From a virus: a stretch of DNA of 36,353 nucleotides. The stretch lies in the UHGV virus genome UHGV-0234394. One strand, given 5' to 3'. Under the pieces are notes generated by a model. That model was not told the origin of the DNA, did not search any database, and worked only from the letters and a program-made list of their open reading frames with translations. Shown here in pieces: positions 5,275 to 15,971 of this stretch (the first letter of the stretch is position 1; every line of letters starts with the position of its first letter). A program made the position numbers and the translations under genes.

Positions 5275-8097
5275 ATGACGGCAGAGTACATCAGGGACTG
5301 GCAACAACCGCGCCACGCAGTGGGGCGTGAAGGAACGGGGATCCCCGCTCCTGAATCCGCGCTTTCCTCCTGGCTGGATGCCTACCGGGTAGAGAACGAG
5401 CACCGCCAGGAAATGGCTGATGCGGCGTTCTCCGCAACGCCGCTGGGCAACCTGATTAATAAAAGCCTGGACGCACAGGAAAAACAGGACAAAACCATCA
5501 CACTGGCAGGAGATGCCAGAAAACAGGCACGCGGCGCGGTGGATGAAGCCATGGCCTCGCTGCGCCTGCTGCCGTCCTATCTGCGCGATCCGCTTATTCG
5601 CCACCTCTCCTTCCTGTGCAAAAAACAGGAAGCCGATCGTCAGAAAGGCAAAAAGAGCTGGCAGGCTGAACGCTACGCGCGCGGAAACCTGCGCAAAATA
5701 TTCGAACGTCTGGAGCGCACCGATCACCGCTGGCTGACACAGGGTTATCGCTCCCTTGCCGGACGCGAACGCCTGGACGATTTGCTTTACCTGCCGCAGC
5801 TCAACAAACACCAGATACAGACACTGGCCACCATGACGGCGGCGATGTTCAGCAGCACCTTCGAAAAACTCTGCGATGGCTTTGGCGCGACCGATGGCGA
5901 ACTGACCATGGATGTAACACTGAAGGCGTATCAGATGCTGGCCCGCATGGCGTTACACCTGCACGCCATGCCTCCACATTATGACGCACTGACAACAGAC
6001 AAAGACCGGAGGAACGAACCGGACACGGAGCTGCTGCCGGGCGCAATCCTTCGCCTGACCTGTGCAGAATGGTGGAAACGCAAACTGTGGCTGTTACGTT
6101 GCGAGTGGAGAGAAGAACAACTCCGCGCCGCCTGTCTGGTTTCCAGAAAAACATCGCCCTATCTGAGCCAGGACGCGTTAAGCGAGTTTCGCGCACAGCG
6201 CGAGAAAACACGCGATTTCCTGAAAAGTTTCATGCTGGAAAATGAAGACGGGTTCACGATTGATCTCGAGACGGTGTATTACGCGGGAGTAAGTAACCCG
6301 GTTCACCGTAAGGCAGAAATGATGGCCACCATGAAGGGGCTGGAACTTCTGGCCGAAGCCCGTGGCGACAAAGCGGTGTTTCTGACTGTCACCTGCCCGT
6401 CAAAATACCACGCCACAACAGAGAACGGTCATCCGAATCCCAAATGGAACGGGGCCACCATGCGCGACTCCAGCGATTACCTGGTTAACACGTTTTTTGC
6501 GGCGGTCCGCAAAAAACTGAACCGCGACGGTCTTCGCTGGTATGGCATCCGCACGGTGGAGCCTCACCATGACGGCACCGTGCACTGGCATATGATGGTC
6601 TTTGCTCATCCGGAAGAAATCGACAGCATCGTGGCCATCACCCGCGATATTGCCATTCAGGAAGACCGCCACGAGCTGGGCAATGATATTACTCCGCGCT
6701 TTAAGGCGGAGTATGTCGACGGCTCAAAAGGCACACCAACCAGCTATATCGCGACCTACATCGGAAAGAACCTGGACAGCCGCGCCGTGGATGGCATCGA
6801 CCCGAAAACGGGCAAGCCACGCGTTGACCACGAAACCGGAAAATCAATGGCCGAGAGTGTGGAGCGCGCCATCGGCTGGGCGCGCCTTCATCGGGTCCGC
6901 CAGTTCCAGTTCTTTGGCATCCCCTCCCGTCAGGTGTGGCGTGAACTGCGCCGCCTTGCCAGCCAGATGGCACGCAACCCGGAAGGCCCGCAACGACTGA
7001 AAGATGACGCAATGGATGCGGTACTCGCTGCCGCCGATGCCGGGTGTTTTGCCACCTACATTGAAAAACAGGGCGGCGTACTTGTTCCACGCAAAGACTA
7101 CCTGATTCGCACCGCCTACGACCTCGCAGATGAGCTGAATGATTACGGCGAACAGAGCGTACAGATTTACGGGATCTGGTCACCACTCATCGGGGAATCC
7201 TCCCGTGTGTGCACGCATCCGGATAACTGGAAACTGGTAAGACGTAAACCGGAAACGGAAGACAGCGCCCGCGAAAATGGTTTTGACCTTCAGGGCGGCC
7301 CTGCCGCCCCTTGGACTCGTGGCAATAACTGTCCCCGTGTACAGGAAACGGACAACAACGGGACAGAACAGCCGGAAGAACGGCCAGCACCGTGGCCGCA
7401 GCTCCCTGACGGCGTTGATGTGGATGAATGGATGCGCTCACTGAAACGGCACGAACGCCGGGCGCTGATGCGTTCGCTTCGTGACAAACAGGCAAAAAAC
7501 AGCAGTGATGAAATGCAGAGCTGGACACAGAGCCGCAAACAGCAGCGGCCTTTGCCTGATAACCACGAATTACTCGCTAAAGAATGGCGGGAGTCTGCTG
7601 AATCTCTCGGCCTGCATATCGGTGAACAACAGATGCAGCACCTGTTACGGGGCGGCAGTCTGTACGTTGACGGCAGCATCATTGCACCGCAGGGATTTGA
7701 AATTGTACGCAAACCGGATACTCGCCCGGACAGCCGAATCACGCAGCTCTGGCAGCGCCTGAGCCGTAATCACGGCGTAAGTAGCACGGAGATCCGCCAT
7801 AACCCGGTCGCCAGCTATCTGGAACAGCTGGAGGCATCAGACCCCGAAGCCGCCGCACGCCTGGCATCCACACTTCAGCAGGACCAGAACACCATGAAAA
7901 CACCCGTTACCGTGCTTTCTGACATGCTGCGCGCCATCCGCGACGCAGAGCACGCACAGAGAATCAGTGAAACCACTGAACGCGCCCGCCGCAAAGCAGA
8001 CCTGCTGCGGGGTGGCCTGACCAGTGGAAACAAAAAACAGACAGAAACGGGACTCACGAATCCCGTAAATGAGCAAAAAACGCGCAGCGATATATGA
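5275..8097 (+). CDS. A: rolling-circle replication initiator endonuclease (P2 gpA family), long form of 940 aa
   Basis: HUH-type motif in TVHWHMMVFAH and paired tyrosines in YIATYIGK; position after the early genes as in P2. Confidence 0.85.
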   Translation: MTAEYIRDWQQPRHAVGREGTGIPAPESALSSWLDAYRVENEHRQEMADAAFSATPLGNLINKSLDAQEKQDKTITLAGDARKQARGAVDEAMASLRLLPSYLRDPLIRHLSFLCKKQEADRQKGKKSWQAERYARGNLRKIFERLERTDHRWLTQGYRSLAGRERLDDLLYLPQLNKHQIQTLATMTAAMFSSTFEKLCDGFGATDGELTMDVTLKAYQMLARMALHLHAMPPHYDALTTDKDRRNEPDTELLPGAILRLTCAEWWKRKLWLLRCEWREEQLRAACLVSRKTSPYLSQDALSEFRAQREKTRDFLKSFMLENEDGFTIDLETVYYAGVSNPVHRKAEMMATMKGLELLAEARGDKAVFLTVTCPSKYHATTENGHPNPKWNGATMRDSSDYLVNTFFAAVRKKLNRDGLRWYGIRTVEPHHDGTVHWHMMVFAHPEEIDSIVAITRDIAIQEDRHELGNDITPRFKAEYVDGSKGTPTSYIATYIGKNLDSRAVDGIDPKTGKPRVDHETGKSMAESVERAIGWARLHRVRQFQFFGIPSRQVWRELRRLASQMARNPEGPQRLKDDAMDAVLAAADAGCFATYIEKQGGVLVPRKDYLIRTAYDLADELNDYGEQSVQIYGIWSPLIGESSRVCTHPDNWKLVRRKPETEDSARENGFDLQGGPAAPWTRGNNCPRVQETDNNGTEQPEERPAPWPQLPDGVDVDEWMRSLKRHERRALMRSLRDKQAKNSSDEMQSWTQSRKQQRPLPDNHELLAKEWRESAESLGLHIGEQQMQHLLRGGSLYVDGSIIAPQGFEIVRKPDTRPDSRITQLWQRLSRNHGVSSTEIRHNPVASYLEQLEASDPEAAARLASTLQQDQNTMKTPVTVLSDMLRAIRDAEHAQRISETTERARRKADLLRGGLTSGNKKQTETGLTNPVNEQKTRSDI

Positions 8098-8173: not shown

Positions 8174-8338
8174 ATGAAAATTTGTATCGACGACGGCTCC
8201 ACCAACATCAAGCTGGCATGGACGCACTGTCGCCCTGCATGGAGAAAAACAATAAAAAAGATGAATAACTGCTCATGTCAGACGCGCTGCGGGCAAGTCT
8301 GGCACCCTGCCCTGTTTCCGCAAAGGCTGTTGTCTTAA
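8174..8338 (+). pseudogene. remnant of a ParM/StbA-like actin-type ATPase gene (N-terminal 16 codons only)
   Basis: 54-codon ORF begins MKICIDDGSTNIKLAW, matching the ParM N-terminus (MLVFIDDGSTNIKLQW) as I recall it, then diverges. Confidence 0.35.
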
Positions 8339-8358
8339 CACGACAGAGTATGCCAGCA

Positions 8359-8766
8359 TTAAATATAATCTTCTTCGTAGTCGCTGATTAATTCATTGCC
8401 ATAATCAGACAGCAATTTCAAAGCAAAGGTAACTTCCTCAAGGGTAGCTATCCCCATTGCTGAAAACACCGTTAATTTAACCAGCAGCAGGGAGTTTGAA
8501 AGTTCGGAAGAGTTCATCATTAAAAATATTGATGCAGCCTGAAAAGCTGTGCGTTTATTCCCATCATGAAAGGCATGAGCCTTGGCTATACCAATCAAAT
8601 ACATAGCAGCCAGAGCATGAATATCATCAACCCCTTCATAGTAGTGTAGTGTCCTGACGCGATTTAAAGCACCTTCAAGTAGCCCGTCATTGGCATTTCC
8701 GCTCTGGGGTAAAGTTTCAGCATGGATACGTTCTACTTGTTCTTTTGACAAAAACACTATGTCCAT
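8359..8766 (-). CDS. Doc/Fic-family toxin (death-on-curing type)
   Basis: 135 aa with Doc-type motif HAFHDGNKRTA; start overlaps the stop of the upstream antitoxin gene; AT-rich. Confidence 0.8.
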   Translation of the reverse strand: MDIVFLSKEQVERIHAETLPQSGNANDGLLEGALNRVRTLHYYEGVDDIHALAAMYLIGIAKAHAFHDGNKRTAFQAASIFLMMNSSELSNSLLLVKLTVFSAMGIATLEEVTFALKLLSDYGNELISDYEEDYI

Positions 8767-9122
8767 CAGTTATCCTCAAGCTTTTTAATGATATCCGCAT
8801 GTTTTTCTCTTGTACGCTTCATTGCATCTTCAAAAGACAATCCTTTTTTTCTCTGTGCGACAAGAGCTGGATGACGTTTTTCCAGATCTCTCACTGCATT
8901 TATTAAGAGTGGTTGCTTCATTTTGTTTATTTGATCCCGCAGTTTTTTGGTTTTGCCAAGGACAGCCCGTATTTCAGGACTAAGATCAGAACCAGCAAGA
9001 ACAACATCCTTCCCTCCCTGCGCAGTGATAACGACACTGCCACCGGAAGAAAGGTAATCCAGAATTTCACTCAGGTTCTCACGAAATTCATCATCAGTTA
9101 CAGTTTTCATATTCATTTCCAT
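8766..9122 (-). CDS. Phd/YefM-like antitoxin
   Basis: 118 aa; N-terminal region (FRENLSEILDYLSSGGSVVITAQGGKDVVL) has the Phd/YefM pattern; first gene of the two-gene operon. Confidence 0.65.
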   Translation of the reverse strand: MEMNMKTVTDDEFRENLSEILDYLSSGGSVVITAQGGKDVVLAGSDLSPEIRAVLGKTKKLRDQINKMKQPLLINAVRDLEKRHPALVAQRKKGLSFEDAMKRTREKHADIIKKLEDN

Positions 9123-9197
9123 TATGCACGCCCATAACGTAAGTATAACGGCTTGTTGGGCAGTAATAACACCGCCATATTTTCATTTTATACACCG

Positions 9198-9223
9198 CAC
9201 AATAGTGCACAAATTTGCACAAT
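9198..9223. promoter_or_regulatory. three 10-bp phased GCACAA repeats, candidate operator over the TA promoter
   Basis: GCACAA at 9198-9203, 9208-9213, 9218-9223; on the minus strand these overlap a -35-like TTGTGC followed by TATAAAAT. Confidence 0.45.
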
Positions 9224-9239
9224 TTTTTTGAACAACTTT

Positions 9240-9350
9240 TTACCCTTCCGGCCCGCGTGGCGACTGGATCCGTCAGGGATCCGTGCGTGCACAAAAAAAC
9301 GCGTTTTTTCTGCGCGCAGGTGACGGGGGAACAGCCCGCGTTTCAGGGGG
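9240..9350. other. candidate cos region
   Basis: GC-rich segment between the A-side accessory genes and the packaging genes; ggtgacgggggaacagc (9319-9335) and gcgtggcg (about 9250) resemble the P2/186 cohesive-end sequences as recalled; A7CGCGT6 palindrome at about 9292-9308. Confidence 0.3.
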
Positions 9351-9721
9351 TAAATAGCATTCCCTGAACGATGTCGCAGAGACACAACAGAATGGCCATA
9401 TTTCTCACGCTGAGCATGAAAAAGGCGTGAGGGCTTTTGATTTGATGGGGTGAAAGGTAAGGCCGTCAAAATCGCACTGAGGCAGCGAGAACATACAGTC
9501 AACGCGGTGGAATTGCGTAAGAGTCTGACCGTCGATGGTGGCGATAAACTGGAAGGCGTCGTGAAATTATCTGATTGATACAGGAGCTGGAGAGCCGGGG
9601 CATAAATTTTTTATGCCCCGGCGAAGCAGCAGACAAGCGAAGCGCGTCAGCGATACGGCACCTTGCCGACCATACTTCATAAGTGCAAAATACGAGCAAA
9701 GAAATCAATGGAGGCTGTCTT

Positions 9722-10246
9722 ATGGTCATTAATTACAAGCAGTTAAGAGAAAAACGGGAGCAGGTAAAGGAGAGCTTTCGCCGCAATGAAGATCTGACCC
9801 CGCTTGTACGCCTTGCCCAGGGCATTGTTGATGCTTATGAAATCTCGCTGGAGCTGCCATCACAGACCTGGACAGATAGCGACGGTAATCGCCAGCATTA
9901 CGTTTCATGCGGACTGGAAGCAGCCGAAGGATTTCGCAGAATGCCTTTATCCCAGATCCCTGCCGCTACCCCCAAAGCATGGGGCAGCAATGATGAGCGA
10001 AAACTGACTTTTAGTATTGAAACGGTGGTTGACGACACACCTGGCGAAGTCGCGTTCGTACACACTCCTGTTTCGATCGCAATGTATAACGATGAAATAC
10101 AGGTTCGCGTTAATAATAATATCGTGCCACTTAAAGAAGGTAATTCACCCTACACCACCGTTTGTGAAGCCATTCAATATTACGTTCTCTCTGAAATTGA
10201 TAATCTCAAGCCTGACGGCACCCAGAAAATGGTTCAACTCTGGTAA
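9722..10246 (+). CDS. hypothetical protein (174 aa), accessory gene of unknown function
   Basis: Track ORF 9683..10246; ATG at 9722 has GGAGG 7 nt upstream; no recognisable motif; ends at a bidirectional terminator. Confidence 0.6.
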   Translation: MVINYKQLREKREQVKESFRRNEDLTPLVRLAQGIVDAYEISLELPSQTWTDSDGNRQHYVSCGLEAAEGFRRMPLSQIPAATPKAWGSNDERKLTFSIETVVDDTPGEVAFVHTPVSIAMYNDEIQVRVNNNIVPLKEGNSPYTTVCEAIQYYVLSEIDNLKPDGTQKMVQLW

Positions 10247-10277
10247 AAAGGACAGCCCCATCACGGGGCTGTTTTTT
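10245..10277. terminator. bidirectional intrinsic terminator
   Basis: A5, stem acagcccc/ggggctgt, then T6; sits between convergent ORFs. Confidence 0.7.
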
Positions 10278-11307
10278 CATCAAGAAGAGCATAAGAGTTA
10301 AAACGGATCACCTCTTCGCCAAGCCAGTCATTGATGTGCTTCATAGCCTCCATGACGGGCATCAGCTCGTTAATTGCGTAAACCCGCGCTGCCTTCTCCA
10401 CATCGCCAAACGCACTTTTTTCGCCCGGCATCGCCCCCATCAGTTGCGGCGGAACGCGGTGCGCAGCCAGCACATCATCACGGGATGCCGCCTTAACATT
10501 CATGAATTCATCTTTTGCGGTGATCTGCTGGAACGGCAAAATTTGCACCCCCTCTTTGCCCCCGTTGGGCGCATGAATGAGCACGTTTTTAAACGCACCA
10601 CCACCACGTGCCCCCTGTAGCGTTTCTTTCAGGGAGTCCATGCTTTCGCGGTTTACCTGCGCTGCACCGATGTAGATGATGCACCCGGCGTGGGATCCGT
10701 TGTCGTAGTACAGTTTTCTGAACATGTCCGCCGAATGAGAAAGGCTGGCCGAGAGTAATGCGCCAAGATATTCCGGCATGCCGTAGATTTCCTGGTTAAT
10801 ATCCGGATTCATCAGGTGGCACACTTTGCCAGGACGAAACTGAAACGCGTCCTTGCCATCCTGCACATACCACCATGATTCAAGATCGCTTCCGCGTCGC
10901 ATGTATTTCGCCAGGGCGTGCCGTAATTTAAGCGGTTCGCCGAGCATATTGCTTCGAAGCTCAAGGAATGCGTTACCGAACACAAACCAGTCCAGCGCCA
11001 GCGCCGAGAAATCCTGCCGGGAAAGCAGCGGGTGCGGGATGTAGCAACCGAGTAATACATTGCGCTTAAAGTAAAGCGCAGACTGATGCCAGGACGTTTG
11101 CCGGGCAGCTCTTGCCAGACCGTACCAGTCCACCGGGGTTTCATACCACCGCCCGTTATCAGCACAGTACATATTGTCCAGCAGGTCATGCCCGGTCAGG
11201 CGATAAGGACCATCAAATGTGAATGCACTGAGCGATGATTCTTTCCTGAGCGCATCAGCGAGATCAATGCGTGAACTCATGCGCACTTTTTTATTTTTTC
11301 TGCTCAT
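10261..11307 (-). CDS. Q: portal protein (P2 Q-like)
   Basis: 348 aa; position and orientation as P2 Q, adjacent to terminase; start codon not refined. Confidence 0.8.
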   Translation of the reverse strand: MSRKNKKVRMSSRIDLADALRKESSLSAFTFDGPYRLTGHDLLDNMYCADNGRWYETPVDWYGLARAARQTSWHQSALYFKRNVLLGCYIPHPLLSRQDFSALALDWFVFGNAFLELRSNMLGEPLKLRHALAKYMRRGSDLESWWYVQDGKDAFQFRPGKVCHLMNPDINQEIYGMPEYLGALLSASLSHSADMFRKLYYDNGSHAGCIIYIGAAQVNRESMDSLKETLQGARGGGAFKNVLIHAPNGGKEGVQILPFQQITAKDEFMNVKAASRDDVLAAHRVPPQLMGAMPGEKSAFGDVEKAARVYAINELMPVMEAMKHINDWLGEEVIRFNSYALLDEKTAP

Positions 11308-13058
11308 CAGAACTCCATAACTGTGAAACGCTCGTTTTCTCCTTCGCCGCCAATTGGTTCGTTAATGACAGCAAGCATGGTTGCCCACGCAAGGTCGCCG
11401 TGGCTGATCCCCCTCGCGCGGTCCGTTTCGTAAGTGATAAAGCCGCCCGGTGTTTTCACCTTACGCACGGCGTTAAAGGCTGCGACCAGCTCGCGTTCGG
11501 CGCGATCGTATTCCCACCGCCCGGCACGCATTATTTGCAGCATTTTCAGTACCAGCGACCGTTTTGATGACAGCGTGAAGGTGTACGGAATAGCAGCAGG
11601 GAAAAACCGTTTCACTATCTGATAAACAGCCTCCCCGTTCCCGCCCGTCACATCAATGCCGATGTGTTCCACGTTGTAGCGACACGTGAACTCTTCAATG
11701 ACTCTGGCCTGTTCTTCAAACTCCAGCCCCTGAACGCGTCGCGTCTCCACCGTTCGAAAACGGCCACCAGGAACAGACGGAGGAACCACCACGGACACAG
11801 CGCCGCTGTCGCCGTTGCCACTGCTGCCGTTTGCGTCATACCCAATCCATACCGGACGATTCCCCATCGGGCGGGGAGCAAAAGGTTTCCAGTCTTTCCA
11901 GTCGTCGTATCCGTCAACACCACAGCCAATCAGGATATTCAGGTTAAATGCCGATTCCCCTTCGCGGACAAACTCACACATATAGAGATTGAGGAACTCG
12001 TCTTCGGTGTTTTCATCACGAATTTCATCAATATCGGTGTGTTTCCAGCCGTGATTAACCACATCTTCCAGCGTGACAATTTGCCGCCACGTCCGGTCAG
12101 GGCAGATAAGCCCGTTATGCAGCGTTTTCCAGTCCACAGAAAAACGCTGGCGTTTATGCGTGGCCTTTTTCTCGTTCCAGCGGTCGCCGTTCCAGTAGGC
12201 GTATGCCTCGTGCGTTTCGGTGGATGGCGTGGAGAAGTAGGTGCGCCGCAGTCCGCTGAGGGTTGCCATAGCGCCAGCCACCTTGCGCAGTTCAGCAAAG
12301 CGACTGACCCAGAAAAATTCATCAAAATAAAAATTGCCCGTATAGGACTGCGCCGACGCAGCAGAAGTGCCGAGAAAATGCAGCTCTGCGCCGTTGGAGA
12401 GGATGATTTTATCGCCCCCTTTCAGCTCCACATCAACTTCAGCCGCGGCCTTCTGAATAATGCTTTTAAACTGGAACGCCTGACGACGCGACGCAGACAA
12501 AAAAATCTGGTTACGCTGGTAAGGTTGCGCCACATCGTCACGCAGCGCCATCAGCAGTGCTTCCTGTGCAAAATACCAGGTCGCGCCAATCTGTCGGGAT
12601 TTCAGGATCATCCTGTTACGTATCCCGGCTTCCCTGCAAAGGGTCAGGGAGTCAAACCAGCCCCGCTGATGCCACTCCAGCCTGCTGATGATTTTTTCCC
12701 GCAGTGCGGCAATCTGTTCCGGCGTGAAATGATTTTTGAGTTTTTTCGCCCGGCCTTTCTTTCCTGTGGCCGTCGCATCCGGCTGGCCATCATGCATTTT
12801 TTTAAGCTGCCGGGTCAGCAGGTCTATTTCCTTAAAGTCACCGCCTGTTTTATTCTGTTTTTCAGTAAGCTGGATGAGGCGCGCATCGATGGACTGCGTG
12901 ACACGCTGCACGGGTGGCGTTTCATCCCACTGGTCGCGTTTTTTCCACGCATAAATCGTGTTCGGGTTTATTCCCATCAGACGTGATATTTCTGCGGGCG
13001 GATAACCCTGCCAGTAAAGTTGCCGCGCACGCTGGCGCACAAAAGCGTCCTGAATCAT
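11307..13058 (-). CDS. P: terminase large (ATPase) subunit (P2 P-like)
   Basis: 583 aa; same size class and position as P2 P, divergent from O. Confidence 0.85.
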   Translation of the reverse strand: MIQDAFVRQRARQLYWQGYPPAEISRLMGINPNTIYAWKKRDQWDETPPVQRVTQSIDARLIQLTEKQNKTGGDFKEIDLLTRQLKKMHDGQPDATATGKKGRAKKLKNHFTPEQIAALREKIISRLEWHQRGWFDSLTLCREAGIRNRMILKSRQIGATWYFAQEALLMALRDDVAQPYQRNQIFLSASRRQAFQFKSIIQKAAAEVDVELKGGDKIILSNGAELHFLGTSAASAQSYTGNFYFDEFFWVSRFAELRKVAGAMATLSGLRRTYFSTPSTETHEAYAYWNGDRWNEKKATHKRQRFSVDWKTLHNGLICPDRTWRQIVTLEDVVNHGWKHTDIDEIRDENTEDEFLNLYMCEFVREGESAFNLNILIGCGVDGYDDWKDWKPFAPRPMGNRPVWIGYDANGSSGNGDSGAVSVVVPPSVPGGRFRTVETRRVQGLEFEEQARVIEEFTCRYNVEHIGIDVTGGNGEAVYQIVKRFFPAAIPYTFTLSSKRSLVLKMLQIMRAGRWEYDRAERELVAAFNAVRKVKTPGGFITYETDRARGISHGDLAWATMLAVINEPIGGEGENERFTVMEF

Positions 13059-15170: not shown

Positions 15171-15971
15171 ATGATTACTCCTGCACAGCAACACTGGCAG
15201 AACGTGATGGCACAGCGCGCAGGCCGGGCGAATGAAGGCGTGGACCACGCCGCGCGTACCGCGCATGAAGAGGTGCTGTATCGTCTGCGTCTGGCACAGG
15301 CCCGGCTTAAGGGCGTACAGGCCAGAAGTGCCAAAGCCGCCATCAAAAAAGAGTTGTTGCCGGACTTTTCCGGCTGGATTGAGGGAACGCTGGAGGCTGA
15401 CGGCGGGCAGCAGGATGAAGTGATTGCCACGCTGATGGTGTGGGCGATTGACTGCGGCGATCTTCCGCTGGCGCTGCGTATTGGTGCGTATGTGGTCCGT
15501 CACAACCTCATCATGCCGGATAACTTTGGCCGTACTGCTGCCACGGTACTGACCGAAGAAATCTGCAACCCGGTACTGACGCAGGCCGGGGCGGATGCCG
15601 ACGCGGATTTGTCCACCTTTATCGAACCACTGGACACACTTTGGGAAATTGTCGCCAACCAGGATATGCCGGACGAAGTGCGCGCCAAATTATGCAAGGC
15701 GTGCGCCTTTGCCCGCCGTGGCCTGAGCGATGCGGACAGCATGGCCTCATCACTGAAGCTGCTGCGCGAAGCGATGCACCTGAACCCGAACGCAGGTGTG
15801 AAACGCGAGATTGCAACCCTTTCCCGCGCCCTGAAAAAAGCTGATTCCGCAGCCGCACCAGAAGATGCCAGCACACCGCAGACGCAGGACGAAAGCAGCA
15901 AAAGTAAAAAGACAACGCGGAAGCCTGCAACACGAAAAACCACCGCGACGCAGAAGGCGAAGCGCGGTTAA
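15171..15971 (+). CDS. M: terminase small / endonuclease subunit (P2 M-like)
   Basis: 266 aa; position after N; basic Lys/Thr-rich C-terminus. Confidence 0.8.
   Translation: MITPAQQHWQNVMAQRAGRANEGVDHAARTAHEEVLYRLRLAQARLKGVQARSAKAAIKKELLPDFSGWIEGTLEADGGQQDEVIATLMVWAIDCGDLPLALRIGAYVVRHNLIMPDNFGRTAATVLTEEICNPVLTQAGADADADLSTFIEPLDTLWEIVANQDMPDEVRAKLCKACAFARRGLSDADSMASSLKLLREAMHLNPNAGVKREIATLSRALKKADSAAAPEDASTPQTQDESSKSKKTTRKPATRKTTATQKAKRG

Follow-up and report, generated by a model that had tools for sequence, protein, structure and literature searches.

A Phd/Doc-type toxin–antitoxin pair in the gpA–cos cargo slot of a P2-family prophage, beside phased repeats that probably belong to the cos-linked phage backbone

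The stretch of DNA analysed here (36,353 nucleotides, UHGV virus genome UHGV-0234394; referred to as the window in the following) is a P2-family prophage, which is 100% identical to Escherichia coli UPEC132 over the part encoding a toxin–antitoxin (TA) pair, and which, among named phages, is most closely related to the P88-like Xuanwuvirus group (Peduoviridae). Two small genes on its minus strand, an antitoxin gene and a toxin gene, lie between gpA and cos/portal and thereby occupy the slot of old and tin in P2 (Table 1). This agrees with the first-pass annotation, which had placed the pair between replication gene A and the packaging genes; the scaffold and small terminase genes come after the portal and large terminase genes (from 10261). 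The description of the pair as an AT-rich two-gene operon was likewise borne out, with a GC content of 0.40–0.42 across the two genes vs. 0.50–0.60 in the flanks. Further towards cos, three phased repeats, a fourth copy of the same motif, a perfect palindrome and a predicted cohesive-end sequence follow each other within less than 150 bp.

Table 1. Features of the gpA–cos region in the window and of the corresponding regions of related elements. Motif positions relative to cos were measured from the predicted cos (P88 type) or from the annotated cos (reference phages).
Feature	Position	Strand	Remark
gpA	5275-8097		Phage_GPA, 437 bits
parM remnant	8174..8338	plus	54 codons; StbA_N Pfam match on residues 1-27
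Doc-family toxin gene	8359..8766	minus	135 aa, Fic fold
Antitoxin gene	8766..9110	minus	114 aa, likely start ATG 9110 (MKTV...)
Imperfect palindrome TTATGggCGtgCATAA	9122..9137		between -10 and ribosome-binding site
Candidate operon promoter	9142..9169	minus	-35-like TTATTA 9169-9164, N16, -10-like TATACT 9147-9142
Three phased (T)GCACAA repeats	9197, 9207, 9217 (9197-9222)		distal part of cos-flank array
GGATCCGT, two copies	9266-9282		between distal and fourth repeats
Fourth TGCACAA copy	9288..9294		72 bp after third repeat, 31 bp before predicted cos
Perfect palindrome AAAAAACGCGTTTTTT	9294..9309		between fourth repeat and predicted cos
Predicted cohesive-end sequence GGTGACGGGGGAACAGCCC	9319..9337	plus	sequence match to P2 cos
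187-aa ORF	9683-10246	plus	between cos and portal
Portal gene	10261-11307		flanks TA on cos side
Large terminase gene gpP	11307-13058	minus	
gpM	15171-15971		
TGCA-core motifs, P88 type	-123 / -113 / -103 / -31		array span in window 9197-9337
TGCA-core motifs, P2	-123 / -111 / -101 / -29		array span L006 4453-4594
TGCA-core motifs, satellite P4	-124 / -111 / -101 / -29		array span L010 1102-1225
TGCA-core motifs, 186	-124 / -111 / -101 / -29		array span L012 1502-1625
TGCA-core motifs, PSP3	-120 / -111 / -101 / -29		
TGCA-core motifs, Serratia prophage	-121 / (degenerate) / -101 / -29		
TGCA-core motifs, Ralstonia phage RSA1	-129 / -110 / -100 / -29		array span L024 133-261
(T/C)GCAG motifs, Pseudomonas phiCTX	-109 / -99 / -28		approximate register; array span L023 152-281
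ClpX-type zinc-finger gene	L004 3138-3473; L005 3138-3473; L019 3895-4230		adjoins doc
Further cargo beside Doc TA, other hosts	L016 3875-4515; L015 4334-5038; L017 3839-4522; L018 4265-4948		

The toxin was readily assigned to the Doc family. Its score lies above both curated cut-offs, as found with the Pfam profile Fic/DOC PF02661 (E=3.5e-11; 44.2 bits, cut-off 24) and with TIGR01550 DOC_P1 (53.6 bits, cut-off 38.65), and the gene is annotated by PGAP as a death-on-curing family toxin. A match to the P1 Doc structure 3k33 (E=6e-13) extends over residues 23-119 and includes the catalytic motif: HAFHDGNKR of the toxin (residues 64-72; H64, D68, N70, K71, R72) aligns with HIFNDANKR of P1 Doc, and the motif HxFx(D/N)(A/G)NKR is intact.

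The antitoxin is encoded directly upstream of the toxin, with a one-base stop/start overlap of the two ORFs (TGATG at 8764-8768), and the same layout is found in six homologous loci. Its longest ORF, 8766..9122 on the minus strand, comprises 118 aa. In an alignment of 16 database relatives (53–98% identity), the MKTV start is conserved, and by this comparison translation almost certainly begins at ATG 9110. Two parts of the protein are near-invariant in the 16-member alignment, namely some 45 residues at the N-terminus and the final 24 (LSFEDAMKRTREKHAEIIKRLEDN), the latter forming a C-terminal helix kept in 16/16 family members. With profile searches, the expected Phd/YefM assignment was obtained in part: the N-terminal half matches PF02604 with 29.2 bits, slightly below the cut-off of 29.8, and TIGR01552 likewise matches at the N-terminus only (16.6 bits, cut-off 20.8).

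Structure prediction was more telling in this respect. An AlphaFold (AF2) model built from the alignment of the 16 relatives (mean pLDDT 73.8) shows the order strand-helix-helix-strand-strand, followed by long helices, and the best PDB matches of this model found by Foldseek are the N-terminal DNA-binding domain of P1 Phd and YefM. Model residues 5-43 superimpose on the P1 Phd N-domain (4zlx_A) with an rmsd of 0.7 A over 39 columns at 33% identity, and hhalign gives 39% identity to P1 Phd over 31 columns, while it found no alignment of the antitoxin C-terminal half with the C-terminus of P1 Phd. The N-terminus is hence of the Phd/YefM fold as judged from the model, a relationship that is borderline by sequence and clear by fold. 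Taken together, the fold and sequence matches indicate that the partner of the Doc toxin is a Phd/YefM-fold antitoxin of more than the usual length. The order of antitoxin and toxin and their overlapping stop/start, both named in the first-pass annotation, therefore hold, and judged by its sequence the pair is a genuine, functional-looking and ordinary type II TA operon of the Phd/Doc type that forms part of the cargo of the P2-family hotspot.

Comparison with phd/doc of P1 reveals several parallels. In both modules the antitoxin gene comes first and overlaps the toxin gene by one base (TGATG in the window; TAATG in P1), the antitoxin N-domain has the Phd fold (33–39% identity over 31–39 positions), and the module is carried by a temperate phage. 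However, P1 Phd comprises 73 aa, whereas the antitoxin of the window has 114 aa and two extra predicted helices, and the host element of the former is a plasmid prophage, whereas the latter resides in an integrating P2-family prophage.

Doc has been described as a Fic-fold kinase that phosphorylates EF-Tu and halts translation (Castro-Roa 2013, cited in PMC10440598), and as being neutralised by the C-terminus of its antitoxin (Garcia-Pino 2008, cited in PMC10440598). As expected from the family, the Doc protein of the window would phosphorylate EF-Tu and thus stop translation, the conserved C-terminal helix of the antitoxin would neutralise it, and dimers formed through the N-terminal Phd/YefM domain would repress the operon. 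Transcription would proceed from a promoter of the cassette itself, TTATTA-N16-TATACT, and any operator would be located between its -10 element and the ribosome-binding site.

The placement of this promoter was derived from an alignment of the leaders of six TA loci, whose antitoxins are 53–98% identical. Both hexamers are conserved in 6/6 leaders, with TTGTTA (-35) in the closest relative, L019, and TTATGA (-35) and TATAAT (-10) in L018 as variants, and the 16-nt spacer varies. A GGAAA ahead of the antitoxin start codon is conserved as well. The hexamers lie at least 27 nt downstream of the proximal repeat, and the ~25 nt right after this repeat vary among the six leaders. Going by the conservation of the hexamers in six loci, the operon promoter probably lies inside the cassette, and transcription would start near 9135. 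TTATTA is a poor -35 element (3/6 consensus matches), and a consensus promoter scan reported no minus-strand promoter. The promoter-like sequence overlapping the repeats, to which the first-pass annotation had pointed, does exist in the form of TTGTGC-N16-TAAAAT; it is, however, weak (3/6 matches in the -35 hexamer), went unreported in the same scan and is kept in 2/6 loci only, i.e., in the window and in L019.

A search of the six leaders for a dyad-symmetric operator yielded one that is shared by the two closest loci and absent from the four more distant ones. This imperfect palindrome, TTATGggCGtgCATAA, is found in the window and, with symmetric changes (TCATG..CATGA), in L019, and relative to the promoter it is placed like the operator palindromes of P1 phd; it may be considered a weak candidate for the antitoxin operator. 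Unlike the P1 operators, which consist of a pair of GTAC-core palindromes downstream of the -10 element, the leader of the window holds no such pair.

The region between gpA and cos has been defined as a hotspot for anti-phage genes and further cargo (Rousset et al., 2022, PMC9122126), and its content differs between P88, vB_EcoM-569R5, Citrobacter phage Shae_phiSM, Enterobacter phage phiT5282H and P2. As for old and tin in P2, the TA genes are transcribed away from cos. The TA cassette (8340-9196) was detected in 20 of the 5426 complete E. coli genomes searched, with all copies being chromosomal and at least 99.7% identical. The antitoxin family is small, comprising 16 clusters that all belong to Enterobacterales, and five more distant relatives examined (from Enterobacter, Serratia, Edwardsiella and two other assemblies) all reside in the gpA–cos slot of P2-like prophages, in the same orientation and with the antitoxin start facing cos. 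Searches elsewhere returned little: among plasmids a single match of 168 nt at 73% identity (Arsenophonus plasmid), in a phage collection no entry with the cassette, and among genomes representing one species each a single Enterobacter locus, again inside a P2-like prophage.

In the loci examined, the arrangement reads gpA-parM-parR-ClpX-type zinc-finger gene-[doc<-antitoxin]-repeats-cos-(optional ORF)-portal. It is contained in a supplementary table of Rousset et al. (2022, PMC9122126), not among the systems cloned or tested there, and according to the same study a partition system is present in this hotspot in about one P2-like phage out of four (PMC9122126). Compared with that listing, a deletion of 1652 bp has cost the copy in the window its parM, parR and zinc-finger genes. 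By blastn against strain 1190 (L004 1849-3500), the missing sequence comprises the rest of parM, parR and the ClpX-type zinc-finger gene; the first ~16 codons of the parM remnant are genuine, and the deletion junction lies at 8220-8223. Of the 20 genomes with the TA cassette, at least UPEC132 and 300444 share the deletion.

Several neighbours of the pair deserve mention in their own right. A small gene with a ClpX C4 zinc finger adjoins doc in most copies (Table 1); it is also found in the TA-less phage P88 (gp19) and is absent from the Serratia, Edwardsiella and Enterobacter TA loci. P1 Phd is a ClpXP substrate, and a link of this gene to the TA pair via ClpXP is conceivable. The Serratia TA locus (L016) carries a HicAB TA pair as neighbouring cargo, and a D12-class methyltransferase-like gene stands beside the Doc TA pair in four loci.

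With regard to the function of the pair, the combination of a partition module and a TA system is typical of maintenance functions, e.g., in P1. The ParMR pairing in most E. coli copies recalls such P1-like maintenance sets and, by analogy, suggests a role in prophage stabilisation (death on curing). A different option would be that the pair acts mainly in abortive infection, in which shut-off of the host by an incoming phage leads to decay of the labile antitoxin and Doc then arrests translation. We rate this as a serious possibility that falls short of an even chance: the pair sits in a validated defence hotspot (PMC9122126), its family was seen only in the gpA–cos slot and PADLOC gave weak matches to the candidate defence models PDC-S23 (E=7e-6) and PDC-M59B, but none to an established defence system model; moreover, the usual neighbour is the ParMR partition module, and Rousset et al. 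list the pair but report no defence test of it. In itself the pair adds little, being annotated by PGAP and already catalogued among P2 hotspot cargo. It represents, however, a reasonable candidate for testing in phage defence or prophage stabilisation.

The repeats in front of the antitoxin gene are a different matter. As described in the first-pass annotation, three GCACAA copies follow each other at an exact spacing of 10 bp (Table 1), a phased pattern that was matched once in the window and did not turn up in any of 100 shuffles. They lie 75–112 bp upstream of the antitoxin start codon, phased on one helical face, and the homology of the window with phages bearing other cargo starts exactly at the first repeat. 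Three TGCAC(A/G)A copies in the same phase are also present in the TA-less phages P88, vB_EcoM-569R5, Shae_phiSM and phiT5282H, the last of which belongs to another genus (Novemvirus). Within E. coli, a block of 152 bp that reaches from the repeats to cos (9194-9345) occurs, essentially at full length, at 1236 places in 1092 of the 5426 complete genomes, compared with 20 genomes for the TA cassette. The repeat block is thus not tied to the TA pair and is present where the latter is absent.

What the repeats follow instead is cos. The predicted cohesive-end sequence GGTGACGGGGGAACAGCCC matches the P2 cos (GGCGAGGCGGGGAAAGCAC) at 13/19 positions, differing at the remaining 6/19, shares its place and orientation relative to Q, and is identical in P88, 569R5, Shae_phiSM and phiT5282H. 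A cos site at 9241-9260, as implied by the start of record LR595891, was considered and rejected, since 9319-9337 fits the P2 cos and the flanking layout. A fourth TGCACAA copy precedes the predicted cos, and the 72-bp gap between the third and the fourth repeat recurs in P2, P4, 186 and phiT5282H. The perfect palindrome AAAAAACGCGTTTTTT follows this copy in the window; P2 and P4 have a different, GC-rich dyad at its site.

Measured from cos, the arrangement of three motifs plus one, at about -123/-112/-102 and -30, is found in at least five Peduoviridae genera and in satellite P4 (Table 1). The motif itself reads TGCACAA in phages of the P88 type; in P2, 186, P4 and RSA1 it reads TGCAT. In the window as well as in P2, 186, PSP3, P4 and RSA1, one TGCA core is located at about -29/-31, on the edge of the conserved core, and two or three further motifs are present at about -101 to -124. 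The 61-nt spacer between the two repeat groups is at chance identity between P2 and other phages (0.16–0.30), so the positions of the array are conserved without the intervening sequence. The TA-less carriers and the fixed register to cos together identify the repeats as a cos-flank element of the phage backbone. All in all, we consider it probable that the pair is Phd/Doc-type TA cargo with a promoter of its own, and that the GCACAA repeats are a cos-linked backbone array lying outside the TA cassette. As the array would have to be kept, it forms the right-hand edge of the cargo slot, which would explain why the TA pair abuts it, and thereby provides a precise, sequence-defined boundary for the gpA–cos hotspot.

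Such a register to cos points to DNA packaging. P4 shares little with P2 beyond the packaging signal (PMC9122126; PMC9594776) and carries the whole array, and comparison of these elements suggests that the array is probably part of the packaging signal, where terminase would recognise it. For P2, 186 and P4, a cos core of 55 bp has been reported (Ziermann and Calendar, 1990, cited in PMC9594776 and PMC5694545). This core would take in the copy at -29, but not the distal three repeats, for which a packaging role is putative; reviews citing that work mention only the 55-bp core. In the GenBank record of phiCTX, repeats R3-R6 are annotated across cos.

The large terminase gpP features an N-terminal helix-turn-helix (Terminase_5/HTH_23, residues 6-63), which makes it a candidate reader of the cos-flank repeats, besides gpM. 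Between the distal and the fourth repeats, GGATCCGT is found twice in the window, 11 bp apart (two BamHI-type palindromes), and P4, 186, PSP3, phiT5282H as well as Serratia and Edwardsiella prophages have GGCGCGG(T/C)(C/T) at its site.

Alternatively, the array could be mainly a transcriptional element of the backbone, i.e., a binding site through which a regulator of host or phage origin drives or gates the leftward expression of any cargo in the hotspot. The mapped starts of the P2 old-tin mRNA (L006 4425/4427) have their -35 element, TTGAAT, over the proximal TGCAT repeat; the array can therefore overlap a cargo promoter, and a promoter role is possible in some phages. In TA-bearing phages the cargo is likewise transcribed away from cos. 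On the other hand, the array is also kept in P88, 186 and phiT5282H, where the adjacent cargo faces the opposite way or ends in a terminator, and in P4, where it comes after psu and cos separates it from the hotspot. Its conservation despite the direction of the cargo or a terminator argues against transcription as its main role, and the constancy of its distance to cos from genus to genus, in spite of a spacer that is not conserved, favours a cos-linked one. We therefore consider a mainly transcriptional array unlikely.

A more far-reaching proposal would be that the array is a cosB-like signal for terminase recognition that exists in at least two types (TGCAT and TGCACAA) and fixes both the edge of the hotspot and the set of satellites that a helper phage can package. 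In this complete form, the proposal appears distinctly improbable to us. As a covariation test of the packaging idea, the 5426 E. coli genomes were searched for P4-like satellites whose cos flank is of the P88 type, and none turned up. Among the E. coli satellites, 1051/1080 have the P4-type cos flank, and the single outlier checked is due to an IS insertion. P4-like satellites (psu plus P4-type flank) occur in ~1050 of the 5426 genomes and are thus about as common as the P88-type flank (1092). In P4 itself, a hairpin (GCCATGCA...TGCATGGC; L010 1095-1135) whose arms are the first two TGCAT copies is found just after psu and is followed by a T-rich tract, and the P4 array may double as a terminator.

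The original reading of the three repeats as an autoregulatory operator, used by the Phd-like antitoxin to control the TA promoter, is very hard to uphold: they do lie close to the antitoxin start on one helical face, overlap the weak TTGTGC-N16-TAAAAT in the window and L019, adjoin every TA-family member examined and contain TGTGCA, one base off the TGTACA-like core of Phd/YefM operators (e.g., P1 TGTGTACACA), but more than 98% of the occurrences of the repeat block are without a TA pair, identical repeats are found in TA-less phages, their positions track cos and not the TA start, they are direct, unlike the dyad-symmetric P1 operator, and the -10 element TAAAAT beside them is missing in 4/6 homologues, whereas the downstream promoter is conserved in 6/6. 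Where phased repeats adjoin a cargo gene of a P2-like prophage, they should accordingly not be taken for the operator of that gene. Since the TA family was seen only beside the array, some functional coupling of the two is nevertheless possible. The antitoxin might also bind the repeats, the array might act as an upstream element, and expression of the Doc TA pair could possibly be coupled to occupancy of the array during packaging.

Beyond cos, the window encodes an ORF of 187 aa in front of the portal gene, which gave no match in Pfam or PADLOC. It is present in UPEC132, strain 1190 and 569R5 and absent from P88 and RM10740, and this variable presence points to a second small variable slot on the far side of cos.
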